DNA of 64,000 nt from a virus. Taxonomy: Duplodnaviria > Caudoviricetes. The stretch lies in IMG/VR virus record IMGVR_UViG_3300032303_000488, positions 1-64,000 of that record; one strand, given 5' to 3'. The stretch's first letter is position 1. Each line of letters begins with the position of its first letter. Shown piece after piece: positions 3,040-54,180 of this stretch. A program made the position numbers and the translations under genes. The notes beneath the pieces were generated by a model, which searched no databases, had not been told where the DNA came from, and worked only from the letters and a program-made list of their open reading frames with translations.

Positions 3040-3240
3040 ATGCGTAAGAAGATAATTACAAAGGAAGAAAAGTTAGCAAAGATAATCCTAGATAAACTAG
3101 CAGACTTGACACTAGACTTGGAAATGGTGGGGTATTACATAGCCTACAATGTCAGGGGTGTCCTGTATAATAGATTTACAATCATCAGTGAAACAGCAGA
3201 CCAAGAAAGAGAAAAACAAAATGTCAGAAACAACATTTAG
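3040..3240 (+). CDS. Hypothetical protein
   Basis: Downstream of TGGTATAAT (3007-3015). Confidence 0.7.
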   Translation: MRKKIITKEEKLAKIILDKLADLTLDLEMVGYYIAYNVRGVLYNRFTIISETADQEREKQNVRNNI

Positions 3241-43010: not shown

Positions 43011-43624
43011 TATGCTTCCTCCAGCGTCATAGAGATGTTCCACATGTCAAAGTTAGTACCCCCACGTTTTTGAACACTCCAAGTAAAATCTGTAATATAC
43101 ATTTCTAAAACTTCTTGATATTGAGCCAAATGCGTATAAGCAGCATCATTTCTGCCAAACTCATTAAACTTATCGTACGCTAAGAAAACATAAAAAGTTC
43201 CATAATGTTTTTCATACCAATCCAACAGTTCAACACCGCCAGCACCCCCATCTACCGTGTTTTTATCTACAAGGCTGGTTGGAAGACCTGTTGTTGTATC
43301 TATATTTGGGTCAGCACTGAATGACCTTGATGGCAACATATCCCAAGATACTGACAATGTTCTTTTGTCTGCAATCCAGTAAGAACGCATACGACCATTA
43401 ACCATACGTTGACGATTTTCAATTCTTTGTACTCCAAAATCAAGGGAACTTCTGCTGTGGTCTGACAAAACTATAAAACTACCAGTGTCATTTAAAGAAT
43501 TATTAATTTCATATCCAGAAGGAACATATGAGCCACCAGATAGTTCTCCTGCGTCCTCGGAAAAAAGAATAGCCTGTGGTCTAGCATACTGCTTTCTAGC
43601 ATTCATGTATGTTGAATTGGTCAT
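43010..43624 (-). CDS. Distal tail (Dit-like) protein
   Basis: Immediately downstream of the tape measure gene. Confidence 0.6.
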   Translation of the reverse strand: MTNSTYMNARKQYARPQAILFSEDAGELSGGSYVPSGYEINNSLNDTGSFIVLSDHSRSSLDFGVQRIENRQRMVNGRMRSYWIADKRTLSVSWDMLPSRSFSADPNIDTTTGLPTSLVDKNTVDGGAGGVELLDWYEKHYGTFYVFLAYDKFNEFGRNDAAYTHLAQYQEVLEMYITDFTWSVQKRGGTNFDMWNISMTLEEA

Positions 43625-46600
43625 CCGTTCAATCCTCTTATTCTTCCATTGTCAATCTGTCTAATCTTAGTCATTACCGCATTTGCTATCTGGTCTGGGT
43701 TTGAATTAGAACTTACATTGACGTTTATTTCATATGTGTTACTATTATACACTGAATCTCCTGCTACCGCTGATACTCCGCCCACAAGTCCACCATCTGC
43801 ATATCCATTAATCTTGTTAAGAGTTCCTGAACCAATTCTATCCACCGCTGACTTCTTAATAACAAATTCTCCTGGAGTAAGCATAGCAGGAACTGTATCT
43901 GTTCCCATAGCAAATCCACCATTTGCATATCCACCTTGGGCAAGGTATGAAGGAACCATTCCTCCACGAGAAAATCCTCCAAAGAATTTACCATTAAGAA
44001 CCATTCCACCATTAGCATATTGTGTAGGAGCAGGTTCTGGATTAGGCATAACAAATCCACCAGTGGCATATCTATTTGGGAAGAGTCTACCAAAAAGATT
44101 TTTCATAGGTGCTTTAGAATCTTTAGAAGGAAGCACCGAATCAATAAACTGTTTACCAGGATTTACTGTAATGCCTATTCCCTTAATACCCAACGAATCA
44201 AGTAACGCTTTCAATGCAGCCTTTCGTTCTGCCAAATCTGCTGCAATTTTTTCTACAGCCTGTGGTCCAAATCTATCAGTAGGATTTAGCATAATGGATT
44301 CTATATCTTTTACAGTAAATCCTCCAGGAAGATGTGCCTCAATATATGGGAAACTTGCTGGAGTCTTGATACCAGGAATTTCTTTACGCATAATATTTTG
44401 AGTAGATTCAAGAAGTCCGTGCATTGTTGGGTATGTTGAGAATATTGATGATAATTTTTGCACACCTGGATTTCTTTGTCCTAGTCTGAGTGCTTGGTCC
44501 CAAATTGAAAGACTATCTCCCATAGAAACTGTTGCCTTACCCAAAGTGCTAGGCTTTAGTTTTATGGTGTTGTCTCCATATCTCTGAACGTATCTACTAA
44601 ACGGATTTACAAGTTGATTAAAATTATTGATTGCCTGTTGAGAAGGAGTTTGCTTACCACGATTCCAAATAGAACCTTCGGTCATAAGCATGTCTTCTTT
44701 TGTTGTCAGGAATCCGTATGCTGGTGTTTGCTTTGAAGTAGCATTTGCAGGAATACCCATCATGTTTTGTTCAACTGCTATTCTGTTCATTAGACTATCT
44801 GAGGTAGAACTTCTAATACCAGGAACTCTCATGTTGCCATAGAAGTTATCCTTAAGCATGTTGTGCAGTGCGTCATTGGAAAGATTAAACCCTAATGTTG
44901 GTGTAAGTTTTTTAACCTTGCTGGCAATTCCCTGTGTTCCACTAACCATACCAACACCTGATTCATAGAATTTATCCGCCCAAGTTCCCAAAGCCGCCAA
45001 AGCATTTTTACCACCACGAATACCCAAACCTGTTTTAAGAAAATTACCTACTACTCCCAAACCTTTTCCAGCAAATTTTGCTAAAGAACCACCAAAGGCT
45101 CCAAGTGGTGCAAGAAGTGCATTTAGAATACCTCCGCCAACATCACCTTGACCAAAAGCGGTAGCAGAATCTCCTGCAAGCATTCCAGCACCAATACCTG
45201 GAGTAAAATATGCGGCAGTTCTTCCAAATTCCATAAGACCAGAGTCATCGTGTGCCAAAGCCCATCGTTGTCTTCTTACTACAGGGTCTTCTATTTTTAG
45301 CCATTCACCATTATTCCAAGGCTCGTCAAAGAAACTTGATGGATGCCATTTGCCATAAGCATCTAAACCTCCAGGGTCTCTAGGCTTAGGCTTAGGTTTA
45401 CCACCATCTTTGTATCCAACCAAACCACCATTGGCAAATTTTTGCATTGGATTTTTTGATGCATTTTGAAGTCTATAGAATAAGTCTCTCAAACCACCAG
45501 TCATACCAGATTGCATATCTCCAGTTTTTGCTGTCAGATTCATAAATTTTGCTAGTTCTGGATTATTTTTAATCATATCCTGAATAAGAGGATTTGTTTT
45601 AGCATTAATTGCAGCAATATTGATAGGGTCTAATCCACTCTTTTTTAAATCAAAACCTAACATGTTTGCTATTTTATTTATTTGTGGTGTAAGACTCTTT
45701 TTATGTGTTAGACTATCTGTAAATTTAGATGATTGGAATCCTCCAAAAAAATATGCATCTTTAAAATCTGCTGCACTTATTTCAGAAAGTCCATTCTTTT
45801 TAAGAATGTCATTTGTTTGACGTAAATTAAATCCTGAAGATTTCATGGCTTCTACAATGCTTGATGTTCTTTGTGCAAGTTCTTTAGTAAATAGATAGTC
45901 TACAGAATCTTGTCCTTCTGCAGTTAATGATGTAATTCCTAAATCAATATTTTCAAATCTTTTTGTTTTTTTATTAAACAAAATATTCATTCCATGAGTA
46001 TCACTATTACCTAAAAGTGCATTTGTTGGTAATGCTTCATCAATATATTTTCTTAACGCTTTAGCAAGGGTGTTAGCACCCTCAACTTTATTTGGTGCAT
46101 CATTAATATATTTTCTTAACCATCCTTGTGAAGAAGGAATTAGGTCTGGAATAATCTTACTTCCAACAGTTGTTCTATTAAGCATTTGAAGTTTTGGTCC
46201 ACCCAAACCTAATTTAGCCCAAATAGTTGAACCAATGAATTCTCCTGTTGTTTCAACAGTAGTGTCTGGTCTTTTTACATAATACTTTTCTCCATTAATT
46301 ATTCTATATGCACCAGGGGTTGCTCCTTCTGCCTCATTCAACAAATGTGTTGGAGTTATCTTTAAACCTTTTTTGGGTGTCTTTAATACTAGAGGGAATC
46401 CAAATGCTTGTGCTGCTTTTTTACCTACTCCCTTTACCGCCCCAGGCACAGCAGCAAAAGCATAATCTATTGGGTCTGTTGGGTCAAATATAAAATCTTT
46501 ATAGAATTGACTTGTATTCTTTGCACCAGTCTTAATTGTTTTTGCAGCGGTATTATTTAGATAAGCACTAGGATTTCCACCACCAGCATAAGTACCATTA

Positions 46601-49600
46601 ATTAATCCTTGAAGCCAACCCATAGGGTCCAAGAATGGGTTAGGTGCACCTGTATCTCTTTTTACCATTCCTCCAGGAGCATATCCGACCATGCCACCAT
46701 TGGCAAAAAGTTTAGTCATGTTTCCAAGTAGACCACCCATTCCATTTCCACCATACATGTGATTTTCTATTAGAGAAATTGGTGCTCCCCCTCCAGTATA
46801 TAGTGGTTTCTTTTTCTTAGGGAATATTCTAGGAATACCAGATTTAGGTGGGAATGGCTCTTTACTTCCTGGAATCCAAATTCTAGAATTTCTGTATAGT
46901 CTACGTTCCTTACCAGTTTCTGGGTCAATGTTTGACTTAAGAATTCTTGACCACCAAGAACCAACTTCCATTCCGCCAGGAAGTGTGCTTTCTGCTGTAG
47001 ACCAATAACTTTCTCCGTGACTTACAACCCACCTACCCTTTTCATCCCATTGTGGTGCAGGGCGTGGACCAATATATCCACCATCTGCATAGCCATTGTA
47101 GCCACCATTTTTAAAGTGACGAACCATACCTCCATCTGCATATTTTGGAGTATTTGGAGATAATGTTGGATGTAAATTTACAACATTAGGATTAGTATAA
47201 TATGAATTCCAGGCTTTTTCCTGAGCCTTATCAGTAAACATTGATTTCTTTGTAAGTAAATTTGTATTTAGTCCAAGTGTTTTAAATCCTTCTGCTACTT
47301 TGTCTGGTCCCCAAAGTCTAGACATAGCACTTGCTAAGATTTTTGCTTCTGCTTTATCTAATCCATTATAATTTCCATACATCTTATTAGCAATAAGATT
47401 ATTTCTTGCAGACAAATCTTTTCTACCAGGAATAAATCCAGTCCAATAATTATCTTGTGCAATTTTATCAATATATGGGACACCTAATCTTCTAGATTCA
47501 ATCAAGGCTTTGTAATATTTTATTGTTCCAGCAACCGAAGTAAAAGACGCACTTTCATTTGTTCCATCTTTAAAGTCAACCAATGACCTTTGTCCCTTAA
47601 CGTGGCTAGGTCCTCTTCCATTATACCAACCCTTGTTTGCGTCACCAAGATTATATCCAAACAATGATTTTTCAAAGAAATTGTGTGAGTAATTATACCA
47701 TCTTGGGTCATCTGCTCTGGTTATTGGTTTTGCTAAATCATCTAACGTATATGGCTTGGGCTTAGGCTTCTTTTTAAACTTATCCACCATACCGCCAGCG
47801 GCAAACCCTAGCCTATCTGCTTGGTTTAATTTATCGAGGGTATTTACACCAATAGTCTTTACAGCATTTGCTCTAATAACATATTCTCCATTAGAAAGCA
47901 TTGCTGGAATACTGTCGCTTGTTCCGCTACCTGGACCTGTAATGTGACCGCCAATTGCTGCTTTAGGAACTAGTTTTCCATCTACAACATCATAGCCTGG
48001 AAGATATTTCAGTTGTGCTTTTTGTTTATTTGCTATAAATTGTAAAGGATTGTTCCAAAATTCTGAATTAAAAATATCACCTATACCACCCAATTGTTGC
48101 ATAGTAATATTAAATCCAGCATCCAGATAACCATTAAAATCTTTTTTATTTAATCCTTTTTCAACAACTGGTGCTGTTCCTGCTTGAACTGGTGTATTAG
48201 TTGTAAGTTGAGATGTTAGGTCAGCAATGCTTGCAGATAAATCATTAACAGAATTTGACAATCCTGCTTGACTATCTTGTAATGGTTTTATTTCTGCTTT
48301 TCTAGCATCGTCTAAACCTGTTTTTTGATTATCCAAAGAAGCCTGAATATCATTGTTTTGAATGTTTATTGCTGCCGTAGCCGCAGCAGCAATATCTCCT
48401 CTATTTAATGCTTCTGCAAGCGTTAGTTGTCCTTGTTGAGATTTTGCAATTTGTTCATTTAATGTTTTTAATTTTTCAATTTGAGAAATACGTTTATCAT
48501 ATCTATCATTAATTTTACCTTCAAGTGCTTGAATATCTTCTGTTTGGTTTTGAATTCCTGTAAGTTGTTTCTTTTTTTCATTTATTTTACTATTAATTAT
48601 GTCTTGTTTTTTAATTGCATTGTTAATATTTTTTTCTTGTTGTATTCTTTGCTTATCTCCACCGAATTCTAGGGTATTTAGAATATCCTGAGTTAATGTA
48701 ACGCCTTTAAGCATTGCTTCTCCAACCAGTTCTTGTTCTGCCAAAGTTAAGTTTTTTATGGCTTCTGCAGCCTTTGCTGCTTCTGGACCTAAACTTGCAA
48801 GAGCAGCGTTAAAAAATTCTATTCCTGTTGCATTTGGCATTTTATTTGTAATAGCAATTAATTGTTCATACTCGATATTAAATGTTTTTGTACTAATTGT
48901 TCCAGTTTGCAATTGTCCAGACAATCCACTAAGGTATGAACCAAAAGTTGCTGCATTTGCTTTTAGTTGTTCTAGATTCTGTTGGTCACGGAATACTGGT
49001 GTGTCTAAGAATCCCTCTCCCTTGCCAGTTATCTGGTCAGCAATAGTACTTCCATTATTTGACCAGTAACCTCCAAATTCTTTTGTAAAGTTTTTTGCTG
49101 CTTGCTGTGCATTTTGCTTTAATGCTGCCTGACCCTTTGGGTCATTTAGAGAGAATATGTTTTCTGAAATGCTTATCTTTTCTTTTCCTGCTTCATTCTT
49201 AATGGCATCAATAATTGCTTTAACCTGTTCTTTTTCCATACCCTGACCATATAGGTCAACGGCAAGAGCCTTCAAAGCATTTGTAACTTCAACATCAGAT
49301 AGGCTCTTTAGTTTTTCAGCCTGTGGTTTATACACTTCTTTAAACTGGTCACTGGCTTGGAATTGTTTTGCAATAGATGCTTGTGCTTGTGTCTGGTCGC
49401 TACCAGTTATTTGCATTGCACGAACACCAGTAAGTTTAATATCTGTTCCAAAGAAATCATTTATTTTTGTCAATTTATCTTGAGTAATTTTTAAAGTTTC
49501 TGTAACTGCTGAATATGCATCTGCATTTTTCTTAATAAGTGGAAGAATAATTTTATCGAATGCTTCGTATGCTGTAATTGCTAAACCTACATATGGAATC

Positions 49601-52600
49601 AATTTACCAAATAAAGGAATAAGTCTTCCAACAACAGGACCAAGATTTTTAAACATTCCAAGAACACCAGTAACCATAGATGCCATACCAGCAATTTGTC
49701 CTGCTTCTCCTGGAAGAACCATGGAAGCCATACCAAGACCCATAGATGTTCCAAACATTCTTCCTTGAAATTTTCCTGGGTCCATCTTTGAAACATTTAC
49801 TCCAGCACTAGTAAAGAAATTGTTATATTTAGTTGACATTTTACCAAGACGTGATTTTTGGAATTTTGTTGCTGGGTTGGGACCATACATTGTTCCAGTC
49901 ATAGGTGTTTCAGTTTTTGGATAATATGACTGAGTTACAGGGTCATAACCCATATCTGCAATTACTCTTCTATTTGTGTTATTTGGAATAAGTATATTCT
50001 GTGACTGTGAACCTGCTGGGGTAATAAAAGCACCCTCACTTATTACACGTCTTGCTCCTGTTGCTACTGCACGACCAACTTGTTCTCCAGCATTTTCTGC
50101 CTGAGAAACACTAGCATCAATTCCCTTGATAGCACCCTTACCAATATTTTGTCCAGACTCTTCTGCAATTTTTGATGGAGATGCTTGCTTAGTAGCATCT
50201 TTTACTCCCTGAACAATTGACTCTTCAGTTTGTGTTTTTATTTGAACACCAACTGATTTTAATGCTGTTTTTGCAGAATTTGAAAGATTTGGATTTGCGG
50301 CAAGTGCTTCCATGCTTTGATATTTAGGTTCATTAAAATGTCCTAATTGGAAGTCTTTTCCAGATTGTCCAGTCATTCTTTCATATAGTGTTTTTGCACC
50401 TCCACCTAAAGATAAGTATCCACGAACACCAGTGCTACCCAAAGAGTATATTGATTTTCTTGCTCTTTCTAAGAACTTTCCTCCTGCACGTCTTGGCATA
50501 GTTGGCATGCTTCCATAAAAATCTTCTGATAATCCTAAAGTTCTTGATAATGCAAGTTTTTCTGCATCTGTTGTAGCCAATTGTAATGCTTCTTTTTCTA
50601 CAAATTTTGCAGCAGATATTCTAGCAAGACGCATTCTTTCTTCTGTATTTTGAATATTTGCAAATGTTGTTTCAAATTCTGAATTTATTTTATTTGTAAA
50701 TACTTTAAAAATATTTTCATATTTAGCATAGATTGGGTCAAATAACCCCTTAGCAACTGATGCTTGACTTGGTTTAATTCCCATTGACTCACCTATACGG
50801 AGTGCACCAAAACTTAATATTTGTGCAGGGTCTCTAATTAGACTTGCATTTTTAGACATGTTTTCTCTTGCATCTTGAAGTCTTAGTCCATATTCTGCAT
50901 ATGTTGGAACCTCTCCTGGCTTACCCTGTCTGAATCCAGGAATATTTCCAGATACTAATTGATTTATAAAATGTGGATTTCTTGCTACTACCGAAGCAGG
51001 AATAATGGCTTCACCATTAGATACCTTGGCTAAAATAGAATCACTAGTACCTGTTCCAGGACCAGAAATAATACCACCAGTGGCATATTTTCTAATAGGT
51101 CCTCTAGGTGTGATTGGAACATTAAAACCTCTCTGTGCGGCTACAGAACGCTCATAGGCTGCTGTTAGCATGTCTACTGCTGCCGCTTCGGATGTAAATG
51201 TTTGCTTTAGTTTAGAGTGAACTTGGTCAAGAGATGATGCGATAGCAGCAGCATTAATTTGTTCCTGAGTCATATAGTTTACTTGTTCACCAAGACTTAG
51301 AGATGATTTACCAGTTTTATTAAAGATATCTTTAACAAGGGCAAAACCCTTAATTACGTTTGCCACAGCATTAGCAATAAGACCAAATGACATAAGTAGA
51401 ACTGGACCAACAATACCAGCAACAGCAACAAACTTAACTATAAATCCTTTAACTCCTTCGCCAAGACCATTAAAGTTTTTTAATACTTCTGAACCAAAAT
51501 TAATTAATGGCGTGATAGCCTTCATAAATTGTTCACCAACAGGTGCTAATTGTGCTTGAAAATCAGCAATAGCCTTTTGAAACTTATATAGCGGTGATTC
51601 TGAAATTTTGTTTAATTCTTTTTGTGATAGCATGGCTAGTTCAAGGCTACTTTGTCCTGCTAACCTTAATACCTCGGATGCTTGGCTACCTTGAGCAATA
51701 ACGTTTTTAAACAATGTGGACATACGAGCAAATTGAAATTTACCAAATAGTTGTTCAATTGCTCTTGCTCTATTTAATGGGTCTAGAGTATCTAATGCTT
51801 GAGCAAAATCTACTACTGTTTTCTTTAGGTCACCTTTATCTTTTTCAACAATTCCCTTGATGTTAATACCAAATCCAGAAAGCATTTTGCTTGCAGTATT
51901 AGTAGGATTAATTAAAGATGCTAAACCAGATTTCAGTGCGTTGGCACCTTCTGACGCATTAATACCACCTTCTTTCATTGCTGTTAGGAAGAAAGCAAGG
52001 TCTTTGACATCTCCACCTAGTTGTTGAATAACAGGAGCAGCCTTTGGAATGGCTGTTGTCATATCATCAATATTAAGAACTGTTTGGTTTTCAACAGCGT
52101 TCAGGAAGTTAATGTTTTTTGCAAGGTCTTTACTAGAGATATTGAAAGCATTAGTTAAAGATATAGTTGTTTGCAAAGCCTTCTGTTGGTCTACCCCACC
52201 AAGAACTGAAAGTTTTGTAGCACTGTTTACTTGAGCAAGTAGGTCTGCACCTTTTTTACCAGTTGCGGCTGCTGATGCAGCCATATCCATACTATCTTTT
52301 ACTGCTACACCATACTTAGTGTATTCTAAAGCAAGTTGCTTTATTTGCTCAACCATCTTATTTGTTTCAGCAGTGGTTGTTCCTAAATCTCCATATACAC
52401 GCTTAAGTTTAATAGAGGCTTCTTCAATTTGCTGATAGGCTTTCATTGCAGCCCCACCCATAATTGAAAGTGGGATAGTGAAACCAACCATCAACTGGCG
52501 ACCAGCCCATTGGGTATTCTTACCAAAGTTCAATAGGTTTGTTGAACCTTGTTTTAAAAGTTGATTTAATAACTGTTGACGTTGTGCGGCTATCTGTGTT

Positions 52601-53073
52601 TTTGTTCCAAGATTTTGCATATCAAGTGCAAGTGGTCTAACCTTGATTGCTTGCATTGCACCATTAGCATCACGACCAAGTTTAATATATTGTGATTGTA
52701 GGTCTTTTACTCTTTCACGAGCAACCTTGTTAATGGTTTCAAATTCAGATTTAAATAATTTACTAAATGTTTTAGATGCTCCACCAGCATATCTAAAATA
52801 CTCACCCATTGTGAGTTTGTTCTTTTCGAGGGAGTGGGTGAATTGTTCGGCAGTAGTTCTAACCTTAACCATACTTGCACTAAATGCACCAGTAGAGTTA
52901 ATTGAGTTTATAAGATTTTGTTGTAAGTTCCTGGAGTCAGCAGCGGACGCTGCCCCCATCTTTGCCATTTGTGTATGGAAGGCTGAGATTTGATTTTGAA
53001 GTAATCTGATACTGTCCATTGCGGAAGCAGTATCAATATTAATTCTAATATTGGATTGGATATCATCAGCCAT
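43621..53073 (-). CDS. Tape measure protein with multiple inserted cargo domains
   Basis: N-terminal TMP core (ASEGANALKSGL), long helical stretches, GPGxGTSDSI and GTDTVPAMLTPGE motifs, repeated (Y/F)AxGG motifs. Confidence 0.9.
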   Translation of the reverse strand: MADDIQSNIRINIDTASAMDSIRLLQNQISAFHTQMAKMGAASAADSRNLQQNLINSINSTGAFSASMVKVRTTAEQFTHSLEKNKLTMGEYFRYAGGASKTFSKLFKSEFETINKVARERVKDLQSQYIKLGRDANGAMQAIKVRPLALDMQNLGTKTQIAAQRQQLLNQLLKQGSTNLLNFGKNTQWAGRQLMVGFTIPLSIMGGAAMKAYQQIEEASIKLKRVYGDLGTTTAETNKMVEQIKQLALEYTKYGVAVKDSMDMAASAAATGKKGADLLAQVNSATKLSVLGGVDQQKALQTTISLTNAFNISSKDLAKNINFLNAVENQTVLNIDDMTTAIPKAAPVIQQLGGDVKDLAFFLTAMKEGGINASEGANALKSGLASLINPTNTASKMLSGFGINIKGIVEKDKGDLKKTVVDFAQALDTLDPLNRARAIEQLFGKFQFARMSTLFKNVIAQGSQASEVLRLAGQSSLELAMLSQKELNKISESPLYKFQKAIADFQAQLAPVGEQFMKAITPLINFGSEVLKNFNGLGEGVKGFIVKFVAVAGIVGPVLLMSFGLIANAVANVIKGFALVKDIFNKTGKSSLSLGEQVNYMTQEQINAAAIASSLDQVHSKLKQTFTSEAAAVDMLTAAYERSVAAQRGFNVPITPRGPIRKYATGGIISGPGTGTSDSILAKVSNGEAIIPASVVARNPHFINQLVSGNIPGFRQGKPGEVPTYAEYGLRLQDARENMSKNASLIRDPAQILSFGALRIGESMGIKPSQASVAKGLFDPIYAKYENIFKVFTNKINSEFETTFANIQNTEERMRLARISAAKFVEKEALQLATTDAEKLALSRTLGLSEDFYGSMPTMPRRAGGKFLERARKSIYSLGSTGVRGYLSLGGGAKTLYERMTGQSGKDFQLGHFNEPKYQSMEALAANPNLSNSAKTALKSVGVQIKTQTEESIVQGVKDATKQASPSKIAEESGQNIGKGAIKGIDASVSQAENAGEQVGRAVATGARRVISEGAFITPAGSQSQNILIPNNTNRRVIADMGYDPVTQSYYPKTETPMTGTMYGPNPATKFQKSRLGKMSTKYNNFFTSAGVNVSKMDPGKFQGRMFGTSMGLGMASMVLPGEAGQIAGMASMVTGVLGMFKNLGPVVGRLIPLFGKLIPYVGLAITAYEAFDKIILPLIKKNADAYSAVTETLKITQDKLTKINDFFGTDIKLTGVRAMQITGSDQTQAQASIAKQFQASDQFKEVYKPQAEKLKSLSDVEVTNALKALAVDLYGQGMEKEQVKAIIDAIKNEAGKEKISISENIFSLNDPKGQAALKQNAQQAAKNFTKEFGGYWSNNGSTIADQITGKGEGFLDTPVFRDQQNLEQLKANAATFGSYLSGLSGQLQTGTISTKTFNIEYEQLIAITNKMPNATGIEFFNAALASLGPEAAKAAEAIKNLTLAEQELVGEAMLKGVTLTQDILNTLEFGGDKQRIQQEKNINNAIKKQDIINSKINEKKKQLTGIQNQTEDIQALEGKINDRYDKRISQIEKLKTLNEQIAKSQQGQLTLAEALNRGDIAAAATAAINIQNNDIQASLDNQKTGLDDARKAEIKPLQDSQAGLSNSVNDLSASIADLTSQLTTNTPVQAGTAPVVEKGLNKKDFNGYLDAGFNITMQQLGGIGDIFNSEFWNNPLQFIANKQKAQLKYLPGYDVVDGKLVPKAAIGGHITGPGSGTSDSIPAMLSNGEYVIRANAVKTIGVNTLDKLNQADRLGFAAGGMVDKFKKKPKPKPYTLDDLAKPITRADDPRWYNYSHNFFEKSLFGYNLGDANKGWYNGRGPSHVKGQRSLVDFKDGTNESASFTSVAGTIKYYKALIESRRLGVPYIDKIAQDNYWTGFIPGRKDLSARNNLIANKMYGNYNGLDKAEAKILASAMSRLWGPDKVAEGFKTLGLNTNLLTKKSMFTDKAQEKAWNSYYTNPNVVNLHPTLSPNTPKYADGGMVRHFKNGGYNGYADGGYIGPRPAPQWDEKGRWVVSHGESYWSTAESTLPGGMEVGSWWSRILKSNIDPETGKERRLYRNSRIWIPGSKEPFPPKSGIPRIFPKKKKPLYTGGGAPISLIENHMYGGNGMGGLLGNMTKLFANGGMVGYAPGGMVKRDTGAPNPFLDPMGWLQGLINGTYAGGGNPSAYLNNTAAKTIKTGAKNTSQFYKDFIFDPTDPIDYAFAAVPGAVKGVGKKAAQAFGFPLVLKTPKKGLKITPTHLLNEAEGATPGAYRIINGEKYYVKRPDTTVETTGEFIGSTIWAKLGLGGPKLQMLNRTTVGSKIIPDLIPSSQGWLRKYINDAPNKVEGANTLAKALRKYIDEALPTNALLGNSDTHGMNILFNKKTKRFENIDLGITSLTAEGQDSVDYLFTKELAQRTSSIVEAMKSSGFNLRQTNDILKKNGLSEISAADFKDAYFFGGFQSSKFTDSLTHKKSLTPQINKIANMLGFDLKKSGLDPINIAAINAKTNPLIQDMIKNNPELAKFMNLTAKTGDMQSGMTGGLRDLFYRLQNASKNPMQKFANGGLVGYKDGGKPKPKPRDPGGLDAYGKWHPSSFFDEPWNNGEWLKIEDPVVRRQRWALAHDDSGLMEFGRTAAYFTPGIGAGMLAGDSATAFGQGDVGGGILNALLAPLGAFGGSLAKFAGKGLGVVGNFLKTGLGIRGGKNALAALGTWADKFYESGVGMVSGTQGIASKVKKLTPTLGFNLSNDALHNMLKDNFYGNMRVPGIRSSTSDSLMNRIAVEQNMMGIPANATSKQTPAYGFLTTKEDMLMTEGSIWNRGKQTPSQQAINNFNQLVNPFSRYVQRYGDNTIKLKPSTLGKATVSMGDSLSIWDQALRLGQRNPGVQKLSSIFSTYPTMHGLLESTQNIMRKEIPGIKTPASFPYIEAHLPGGFTVKDIESIMLNPTDRFGPQAVEKIAADLAERKAALKALLDSLGIKGIGITVNPGKQFIDSVLPSKDSKAPMKNLFGRLFPNRYATGGFVMPNPEPAPTQYANGGMVLNGKFFGGFSRGGMVPSYLAQGGYANGGFAMGTDTVPAMLTPGEFVIKKSAVDRIGSGTLNKINGYADGGLVGGVSAVAGDSVYNSNTYEINVNVSSNSNPDQIANAVMTKIRQIDNGRIRGLNG

Positions 53074-53100: not shown

Positions 53101-53418
53101 TTAGATGAGACCACCGAGGGCGGAATCTCCTAATTTAATGCCAGATGCTTCTTCCACAATTTTGTAGACAGTCGGTAAGTCTAGAAGGTCTTCTAGTGCC
53201 TTAAGGTCTGTTGCAATTTCTGGCTTATACTGCTTAAGAGCGATTTGTACACACTCCATTAGCAAGTTCATTGACTTGTCATTGTCATCAGCAACTTTTG
53301 AGATTTCATCAAACTTTTTCATAAAATCACGAAGAAGAGAAATCTTTAATGGTCTGATGTCAACAGTTGTTCCATCAATAAGAGTAATTGTCTTCTCTTC
53401 ATTAATAGTTGTTGTCAT
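53101..53418 (-). CDS. Tail assembly chaperone, short form
   Basis: Between major tail and TMP genes; own TGTTATAAT and AAGGAGG; paralogous to the N-half of 53458-54180. Confidence 0.7.
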   Translation of the reverse strand: MTTTINEEKTITLIDGTTVDIRPLKISLLRDFMKKFDEISKVADDNDKSMNLLMECVQIALKQYKPEIATDLKALEDLLDLPTVYKIVEEASGIKLGDSALGGLI

Positions 53419-53457: not shown

Positions 53458-54180
53458 TTAAGCAATGTCGTTTACAACTTCGTAACCTAATCCGTGACCA
53501 ATTCCAAATCCTGCTTGCTGGGCTTTGACTCCTTGTAGGGCTGTAATATCATTTGGATTTCCACTACCGATACCGCTTGCTTTTGCGGCTACCCTTGCTT
53601 TCATGGCTTCCCAGGGGTCCTCTTCTTGCTTGCCACTTGCTTCATCTAAATCAATTCCTTTAAGAGATGCGGTAAATTTTTTATCCTGATACTCCATCTC
53701 TCTTTTTTGCTCAAGGATTGACATTAATTCTGCCAAACATATAGAAGATTCTAGTTCATCATAGTTCTTCCAAATACCTAAAAGAAAAGCCTCAGATTCT
53801 AATTTATTTAAATCTAAATCATCCCATCCAGACTTAGAAGATGACTCTTCATTTACTTGTTTTTGTTCTTCTTGAACTTCATCTGATTCTTCGCTATCCA
53901 TCTTAATTCCACCAGCATACTCCACAATTTTGTACATAGTTTTTAAATCAAATGTGTCTTCAAATTTATCTATAGTATCAATTTCTGGATAAAACTGTTT
54001 CATTGACACAGTGGCGGCTTTTGTAAGAATTTCAACAATTTCATGCTCATCTTTTGCATTTTTTACTAAATTGAATTCTTCCATAAATTGTCTCATATAC
54101 TTTATTTTAAGTGGAGATATCTCTATCTGTTTTCCATAGATTGTATAAACATGATTCATATCATATATTTTTGTAGGCAT
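53458..54180 (-). CDS. Tail assembly chaperone, long (G+T-like) form
   Basis: N-half aligns with 53101-53418; acidic linker then extra C-terminal domain. Confidence 0.7.
   Translation of the reverse strand: MPTKIYDMNHVYTIYGKQIEISPLKIKYMRQFMEEFNLVKNAKDEHEIVEILTKAATVSMKQFYPEIDTIDKFEDTFDLKTMYKIVEYAGGIKMDSEESDEVQEEQKQVNEESSSKSGWDDLDLNKLESEAFLLGIWKNYDELESSICLAELMSILEQKREMEYQDKKFTASLKGIDLDEASGKQEEDPWEAMKARVAAKASGIGSGNPNDITALQGVKAQQAGFGIGHGLGYEVVNDIA

Follow-up and report, generated by a model that had tools for sequence, protein, structure and literature searches.

The window analyzed here, a 64,000-nucleotide stretch (positions 1 to 64,000) of the 82,993-bp virus record IMGVR_UViG_3300032303_000488 in IMG/VR (Duplodnaviria; Caudoviricetes), encodes the giant tape measure protein (TMP) of an uncultured siphovirus that resembles actinophages, and this TMP carries a predicted kinase domain. 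The segment at positions 45412-46707 (minus strand) corresponds to amino acids (aa) 2123-2554 of this protein. On balance, the sequence comparisons and the structural model favor reading it as a swappable cassette of a modular TMP, composed of an adaptor and an atypical kinase; the kinase may enter the host before the DNA does and act there. A first-pass annotation, made from the nucleotide letters and their open reading frames (ORFs), had proposed a HipA/PI3-PI4-kinase-like domain at this site, preceded by a Gly/Ala-rich linker and inserted by recombination between two flanking 26-nt direct repeats.

The residues that define the protein-kinase-like (PKL) superfamily are all present in the TMP domain (K2267, E2278, D2358/H2360/N2363, and D2377), and each lies on the expected secondary-structure element (Table 1). 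The YYVKRP, GEF, catalytic-loop, and IDLG motifs on which the first-pass annotation had relied were all located where it had placed them, the codon for Asp2358 (46000-46002) falling within LLGNSDTHGMNILF. An alignment of 11 kinase sequences that are 27 to 95% identical (module number + 2214 = TMP number) contained invariant residues at G36, P39, G40, G47, Y51, K53, E64, G75, S91, Y129, N137, G141, N142, D144, H146, N149, N161, D163, and G165. The Lys, the Glu, and the G-N-x-D-x-H-x-x-N and N-x-D-x-G motifs were likewise kept in all full carriers examined (15/15). A chance resemblance of motifs was ruled out by this invariance across relatives, down to 27% identity, and by the fold described below. 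Purifying selection acts on the kinase (dN/dS of 0.28-0.54); together with the invariance of the catalytic residues at 27% identity, this argues for an active enzyme over a pseudokinase. Thus, the domain is likely to be an active ATP-dependent phosphotransferase.

Structure prediction with AlphaFold2 gave a model with a pLDDT of 78 and a pTM of 0.82 when the 11-sequence alignment was supplied; prediction from the single sequence was unusable (pLDDT of 35.6). The order of elements in the model is that of a kinase core: the Lys hairpin, the Glu helix, two strands, helices, the G-N-x-D-x-H-x-x-N loop, two short strands, D-L-G, and a helical C-terminal part. The model is bilobal, as expected of a PKL fold, with a beta-sheet and helix C in the N-lobe and a helical C-lobe. 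A Foldseek search against the PDB retrieved 25 matches at an E value of ≤1e-3 (from 2.5e-4), and all of the matches listed were kinases, headed by PI3K delta/gamma, PRPK, RNase L, CtkA, PI4KB, Tel1, and IRAK1. The top matches of Foldseek and VIA-align combined were also solely kinases (HipA, CtkA, PI4KIIalpha, Vps34, ATM/Tel1, and actin-fragmin kinase), and the alignments to Vps34, PI4K, and ATM span model residues 1-340, including the C-terminal subdomain. Because the top kinase matches are tied within one Z unit, the domain is not assignable to one branch. In general, the proposed HipA/PI3-PI4-kinase-like fold was borne out by the pTM of the model, by the kinases at the top of both structure comparisons, and by subthreshold sequence matches to PI3_PI4_kinase, and we predict a kinase fold for this domain with high confidence.

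Two further structural observations concern neighbors outside the PDB. The ESM Atlas yielded weak leads only, with scores of 0.86 to unnamed clusters and 0.84 to a LepB_N cluster. The best viral neighbors of the kinase model in BFVD were A0A4D6E245 (Gordonia phage GodonK, 1479 aa), A0A6J5PWC9, and A0A6B9L6W7 (Mycobacterium phage Onyinye, 1340 aa). These are large multidomain actinophage proteins, some of them annotated as ADP-ribosyltransferase (ART), portal fusion, head-morphogenesis fusion, or PI3K/PI4K-domain proteins, and tblastn detected no sequence similarity between them and the kinase.

Sequence searches placed the domain outside known kinase families. The 432-aa segment had no match in Pfam, PHROG, or a phmmer search of the PDB, and a sequence search of the PDB with the whole TMP retrieved nothing. 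The one Pfam model with recurrent matches was PF00454 (PI3_PI4_kinase), which matched 5 of the 11 family members below threshold (14.4-21.1 bits; gathering cutoff, 27.1) over profile positions 101-188 only. These matches always fell on the catalytic-loop/DFG segment, with the catalytic loop on profile positions 140-172; the window's own copy gave no match to PF00454 at an E value of ≤10. G-N-x-D-x-H-x-x-N and D-L-G occur at the spacing found in PF00454, and the Arg of D-R-H is missing, with Thr, Ala, or Ser in its place. The best true PDB matches of a family profile were to the catalytic and DFG loops of Tel1, ATM, and TOR (E values of 0.06-1.5), with N-I-D-L-G aligned to I-D-L-G of Tel1. For HipA, there was no match to PF07804, one member matched HipA_2 (PF20613) with an E value of 0.022, and the NCBIfam YjjJ model gave an E value of 0.12. 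An hhalign comparison with E. coli HipA covered 18 columns, in the catalytic loop only, at a probability of 0.2% and was not significant. Because no Pfam, NCBIfam, PHROG, or PDB sequence model reached threshold, the kinase is, by sequence criteria, a new family within the HipA/CtkA/PI3-4K-like part of the PKL superfamily and lies outside both PF00454 and the HipA families.

Table 1. Features of the TMP gene and of the adaptor-kinase segment (positions are those of the window; strand positions of the model are in module numbering)
Feature	Position	Strand	TMP residues	Remarks
TMP gene (P0001)	43621..53073	minus	3150 aa	One uninterrupted ORF
Recombination unit	45425..46691	minus		93% nt identity to L012 (blastn); unrelated sequence on both sides
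Upstream junction motif, FANGGMVGY	46681..46707	minus	2123-2131	
Second junction copy, YAPGGMV	46663-46683	minus		Just after FANGGMVGY
Adaptor module	46402..46707	minus	2123-2224	~100 aa; core GGNPS...FDPxDPxDY...PG
Predicted atypical protein-kinase-like domain	45439..46401	minus	2225-2545	~320 aa
G-x-x-P-G, candidate nucleotide-binding loop	46312..46326	minus	2250-2254	G36/P39/G40 invariant; precedes model strands 40-45 and 48-53; role inferred
Predicted beta3 ATP-anchoring Lys in Y-V-K	46273..46275	minus	Lys2267	Invariant; end of model strand 48-53
Predicted alphaC Glu in GEF	46240..46242	minus	Glu2278	Invariant; model helix 58-73
Predicted catalytic loop, G-N-S-D-T-H-G-M-N	45985..46011	minus	2355-2363 (Asp2358, His2360, Asn2363)	G, N, D, H, and N invariant
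N-I-D-L-G, DFG equivalent, with predicted metal-binding Asp2377 (45943-45945)	45937..45951	minus	2375-2379	N, D, and G invariant; after model strand 158-161
Helical C-terminal kinase subdomain	45454..45903	minus	~2391-2540	Model helices 177-326
Downstream junction motif, FANGGLVGY	45412..45438	minus	2546-2554	

The 26-nt repeats reported to flank the domain (46682-46707 and 45413-45438) are present and identical at 23 of 26 positions, and no other site on either strand of the window matches them with 3 or fewer mismatches. The view of them as a unique pair did not hold. By sequence, both are members of a family of peptide junction motifs, [FY]-A-x-G-G-[MLIFY]-[VI], with at least 14 copies along the TMP, and we rejected their interpretation as an insertion scar specific to the cassette on these grounds, a caveat for any account of recombination at this site. 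The two flanking copies are nonetheless the most similar junction pair at the DNA level (23/27, versus ≤21/27 for other pairs). A longer motif, G-G-x-[IV]-x-G-P-G-[ST]-G-T-S-D-S-I-x-A-x-[LV]-S-N-G-E-x-[IV]-I, was observed three times (aa 663-692, 1705-1733, and 3049-3072, the third copy being degenerate). Each copy opens with a junction-like A-x-G-G, and the region of this G-P-G-[ST]-G-T-S-D-S-I motif matches many PHROG TMP families.

The sequence that precedes the kinase, previously described as a Gly/Ala-rich linker, is instead a conserved module of ~100 aa that also occurs without the kinase in other TMPs. Neither Pfam nor PHROG gave a match for it. Adaptor and kinase match independently: four relatives have the adaptor only (P0006, P0008, P0012, and P0014), with other sequence after it, and five have the kinase only (P0007, P0009, P0010, P0011, and P0013). 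Because it is present before different cargo in different TMPs, the adaptor ("pre-cargo") module is not a simple linker.

Comparison of related TMPs indicated that such cassettes move. In the lake metagenome contig Ga0114963_10000642 (L012), 93% nucleotide identity to the window extends over 1283 nt. The two ends of this block lie within the upstream and the downstream repeat, respectively, and similarity is lost beyond these points. The cassette in L012 directly follows the junction equivalent to aa 1757 and has a different module downstream. The empty-site allele that the first-pass annotation had suggested seeking is represented by L017, whose TMP (2506 aa) aligns to aa 1-1795 and then to aa 2546-2973. 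A single junction thus stands in place of ~790 aa, namely, two other modules, the adaptor, and the kinase. In P0006, an adaptor that is 79% identical is followed by a different cargo of ~290 aa (aa 2046-2331) in the kinase slot and then by the same next module. In P0002, the kinase cassette comes after the next module, i.e., the order is reversed. Across ~20 carriers, the kinase lies at fractional TMP positions of 0.18-0.90, and a junction motif closes it in most carriers examined. Identities of the N-terminal core and the kinase are also incongruent (83% versus 46% in P0004; 71% versus 69% in P0002).

Taken together, the repeat-to-repeat identity block in L012, the empty site in L017, and the varied position of the cassette in other TMPs uphold the proposed recombination at the repeats. 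The moving unit, as judged from these alignments, is the adaptor plus the kinase, and cassettes are very likely exchanged at the junction motifs. A bounded identity block, an empty site, alternative cargo, and a permuted order correspond to the architecture of polymorphic and polyvalent effectors, in which cargo is swapped at conserved boundaries of a conserved carrier. A foreign base composition of the cassette was considered and not seen; GC content at third codon positions (GC3) is 0.14 in the kinase versus 0.16-0.27 elsewhere in the TMP. Two side observations concern the same relatives: a segment at TMP aa ~1707-1763 has 86% DNA identity to L012, and aa 2898-2933 of P0006 gave a weak, below-cutoff match to GNAT acetyltransferases (E value of 0.004).

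The family is rare. When 1.84 billion cluster representatives were searched in full with HMMER, only 14 proteins were retrieved, all of them giant TMP-like proteins or fragments thereof, and a metagenome scan added just two loci; in all searches, the kinase was confined to ~20 giant TMPs. Stand-alone (129-615 aa) and mid-size relatives were sought with a profile, which gave contig-end TMP fragments only. For the N-terminal core, in turn, IMG/VR contains at least 592 relatives. The best 80 loci include 59 TMPs whose 3' end is complete (1136-3790 aa); one of the 59 (L023) contains the kinase, as a divergent copy, and none contains the adaptor. The first-pass annotation had named presence of the cassette, unchanged, in all relatives as a refuting outcome; we found the opposite, a rare and patchy distribution (1/59). 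The L023 kinase (IMGVR_UViG_3300021956_000013, TMP aa 2725-2945) scores 49 bits against the family hidden Markov model and has G-N-L-D-V-H-T-G-N and a canonical L-D-F-G, and the N-terminal core of the TMP that carries it is 70% identical to that of the window.

Several lines of evidence identify the 3150-aa protein as a TMP, namely, a PhageMin_Tail domain (PF10145; aa 247-444, E value of 8e-26 in a Pfam search), matches to many PHROG TMP families, its position among the structural genes, and the gene order shared with Streptomyces phage Angela (Stanwilliamsviridae). This order, which is identical around the TMP in Angela, runs portal, protease, major capsid, major tail, two chaperones, TMP, and minor tail proteins. 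The PhageMin_Tail domain and the place between the tail chaperones and the minor/distal tail genes are those of TP901-family TMPs, and relatives bear the source name "TP901 family phage tail tape measure protein." The closest cultured matches by portal (43% identity) and TMP core (29%) come from this phage group, with Angela as the closest cultured relative. An actinobacterial host is inferred solely from this similarity; the GC content of the window (37%) is far from that of Streptomyces. Upstream of the TMP, phrog_10504 matches both a 105-aa ORF (53101-53418, minus) and the first ~100 aa of a 240-aa ORF (53458-54180, minus). This shared N-terminal domain suggests that the tail-chaperone pair consists of two distinct genes and is not the product of a frameshift.

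Other parts of the TMP and of its relatives were also surveyed. No muralytic domain was recognized in the window's TMP. The regions at aa 2555-3150 (43624-45411, minus) and aa 1759-2122 (46708-47799, minus) gave no significant Pfam match, and PHROG retrieved C-terminal TMP motifs and a weak match to phrog_8314 only. The ESM Atlas gave no lead for aa 2700-3001. A Gly/Ala-rich hydrophobic stretch at ~aa 2620-2690 (45004-45216, minus), at the start of the module that follows the kinase, is also found after the kinase in P0003 and could be a membrane-inserting or glycine-zipper segment. In P0007 (JGI sample 3300045366), a HAD-superfamily acid phosphatase (PF03767, aa 372-537, E value of 5e-17, with a weak HAD_PNKP match) directly precedes the kinase (aa 560-872), an order that makes phosphatase and kinase neighboring cassettes.

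In the reading that we favor, a cassette would comprise an adaptor of ~100 aa and a kinase of ~320 aa with a junction motif ([FY]-A-x-G-G-[MLI]-V) on each side, and it is at these motifs that recombination between phages would add, remove, swap, or rearrange cassettes. At infection, the TMP would leave the tail and cross the envelope, as suggested by what TMPs do in siphoviruses, where, on the general view, they form a conduit through the envelope (PMC7824862). Because the kinase requires ATP, this part of the TMP would have to reach the cytoplasmic side, where ATP is available, and refold there. The kinase may then phosphorylate a host target before phage gene expression, in the service of host takeover or counter-defense. 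Judged by analogy, the whole sequence of TMP exit, cytoplasmic refolding, and early host phosphorylation is plausible, with doubt slightly outweighing confidence. By the same kind of analogy, our first guess for the substrate is a protein (Ser/Thr), as for HipA, CtkA, and T7 gp0.7, and our second is the phosphatidylinositol of an actinobacterial host. A bolder version, which we hold only tentatively, treats the TMP of this lineage, which is widespread and uncultured, as a programmable multi-effector injector with serial enzyme cassettes (kinase, HAD phosphatase, and others). The junction would serve as a recombination site and perhaps as a release or unfolding signal, and the kinase, made in advance, would need only seconds after adsorption, ahead of any phage transcription, to phosphorylate its target, be it a host protein or a phosphoinositide of the membrane.

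Several points weigh against a kinase delivered at entry. A folded 37-kDa domain in three copies cannot fit into the tail tube of a siphovirus; thus, delivery presupposes that the domain is stored unfolded and refolds after ejection. Because proteolytic processing of TMPs can occur, the mature virion might lack the cassette. The window's own sequence matches no kinase model in sequence searches of Pfam, NCBIfam, or the PDB, and tblastn against 50,697 phage genomes retrieved no cultured phage with the domain, a divergent family member likewise giving nothing at an E value of ≤10. The possible processing of TMPs also bears on an alternative in which the kinase acts in the producing cell, either by phosphorylating tail or TMP components during assembly or, if cleaved off before packaging, as a late intracellular enzyme. 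ATP is present in that cell, some TMPs are generally known to be processed (e.g., lambda gpH), the junction motifs could, speculatively, be processing sites, and the TMP lengths in this lineage (1136-4233 aa) are hard to square with a pure ruler role for every residue. However, neither a protease site nor a separate expression signal was identified, entry is the stage at which other enzymes embedded in TMPs act (e.g., the M23-like peptidase that ends the Angela TMP), and patchy, swappable cargo is typical of conflict effectors and not of assembly factors. We regard action in the producing cell as improbable.

The substrate itself is a second point of divergence. With the same fold and delivery, the kinase may instead act on a lipid or small molecule, such as the membrane phosphatidylinositol (PI) of an actinobacterial host or a cell-envelope precursor, through an activity at the entry site that resembles that of PI kinases or aminoglycoside/choline kinases. 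The only recurrent sequence matches are to PI3_PI4_kinase, membrane contact is expected of a TMP, the portal and TMP core are closest to those of Streptomyces phages, and Actinobacteria are generally known to make PI. This substrate is nevertheless unlikely in our assessment: the protein kinases HipA and CtkA score equally in the structure comparison, the Arg of D-R-H is absent, and the segment after D-L-G is acidic or neutral, unlike the basic activation loop usual in PI kinases. The host, moreover, is assigned by phage similarity only, with the GC content of the window at odds with Streptomyces. Finally, a pseudokinase or structural filler that contributes to TMP length or protein contacts without catalysis would find some precedent in RNase L, IRAK3, and MLKL, which are among the structural neighbors. 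Yet all catalytic residues are invariant across relatives that are otherwise 27-34% identical; a filler would not preserve the Lys, the Glu, D-x-H-x-x-N, and D-L-G; and the cassette is dispensable, as L017 and 58 of 59 relatives are without it. We give a noncatalytic role very little credence.

Known TMP enzymes attack the cell wall. If a TMP carries an ATP-dependent kinase, some of it would have to arrive at the cytoplasmic side and work there as an effector; such cargo bears on the question of the final location of the TMP during siphovirus genome delivery. Searches of billions of proteins yielded ~20 members of the family and no cellular homologue, and Pfam has no model for it; it extends the group of atypical kinases near HipA, CtkA, and PI3/4K by a further branch. 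The junction-motif system, for its part, offers a sequence-defined, testable rule for the exchange of virion-borne cargo, and the at least 592 related TMPs in IMG/VR can be mined for cargo domains. Both virion-borne swappable phage effectors and TMP-embedded enzymes are already known; a literature search found no paper reporting a kinase inside a TMP.

Among kinases, HipA and HipT (Shewanella HipA, PDB entries 4pu4 and 4pu5; E. coli HipA, 5k98; HipT, 7ab3) are structural neighbors without a significant sequence relationship to the TMP kinase. The N-terminal subdomain of HipA is unmatched, the aligned HipA chain beginning at residue 115. HipA is also part of a toxin-antitoxin pair, whereas the TMP kinase lies inside the ORF of a virion protein, next to tail chaperones and minor tail genes and with no HipB partner. 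Compared with PI3/PI4-kinase and PIKK domains (PF00454; PI4KIIalpha, 4pla; Vps34; ATM/Tel1), the TMP kinase is much smaller, and it carries no accessory domains of the helical or C2 type. CtkA of Helicobacter pylori (3akj) and actin-fragmin kinase (1cja) are free-standing, and their sequence homology to the TMP kinase is not detectable. A functional precedent is T7 gp0.7, a kinase encoded by a phage and directed at host proteins in the early phase of infection (cited in PMC5512222); in contrast to the TMP kinase, it is made after entry from an early gene, is no virion component, and is unrelated in sequence.

Among virion proteins, the muralytic motifs of mycobacteriophage TMPs and the M23-like peptidase of Angela provide parallels in that a catalytic domain lies inside a TMP, placed to act at entry. 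The target of these enzymes is the cell wall, which lies outside the cytoplasm, and they work without ATP, whereas the TMP of the window carries a predicted kinase. The Angela TMP (L015, ON970591.1) has 2105 aa, an M23-peptidase-like C terminus, and no junction motif. It has been proposed that polyvalent proteins of phages, which bear kinase, ART, and GNAT domains, are carried into the cell together with the DNA (Iyer et al. 2017, PMC5512222), and polyvalent proteins and MuF polymorphic toxins resemble the window's TMP in being multidomain with swappable cargo. Large actinophage proteins of this type are among the BFVD neighbors of the kinase model. The kinases of polyvalent proteins belong to a truncated Ser/Thr/Tyr-kinase group without the C-terminal subdomain, and TMPs are unmentioned in that work (PMC5512222). 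Sle1-type effectors of contractile injection systems in Actinobacteria likewise consist of a TMP-related carrier whose functional domain can be exchanged (Nagakubo et al. 2026, PMC13277306). Unlike polyvalent proteins and Sle1, the carrier described here is a bona fide siphovirus TMP, with several cargo cassettes in series and a dedicated junction motif between them.

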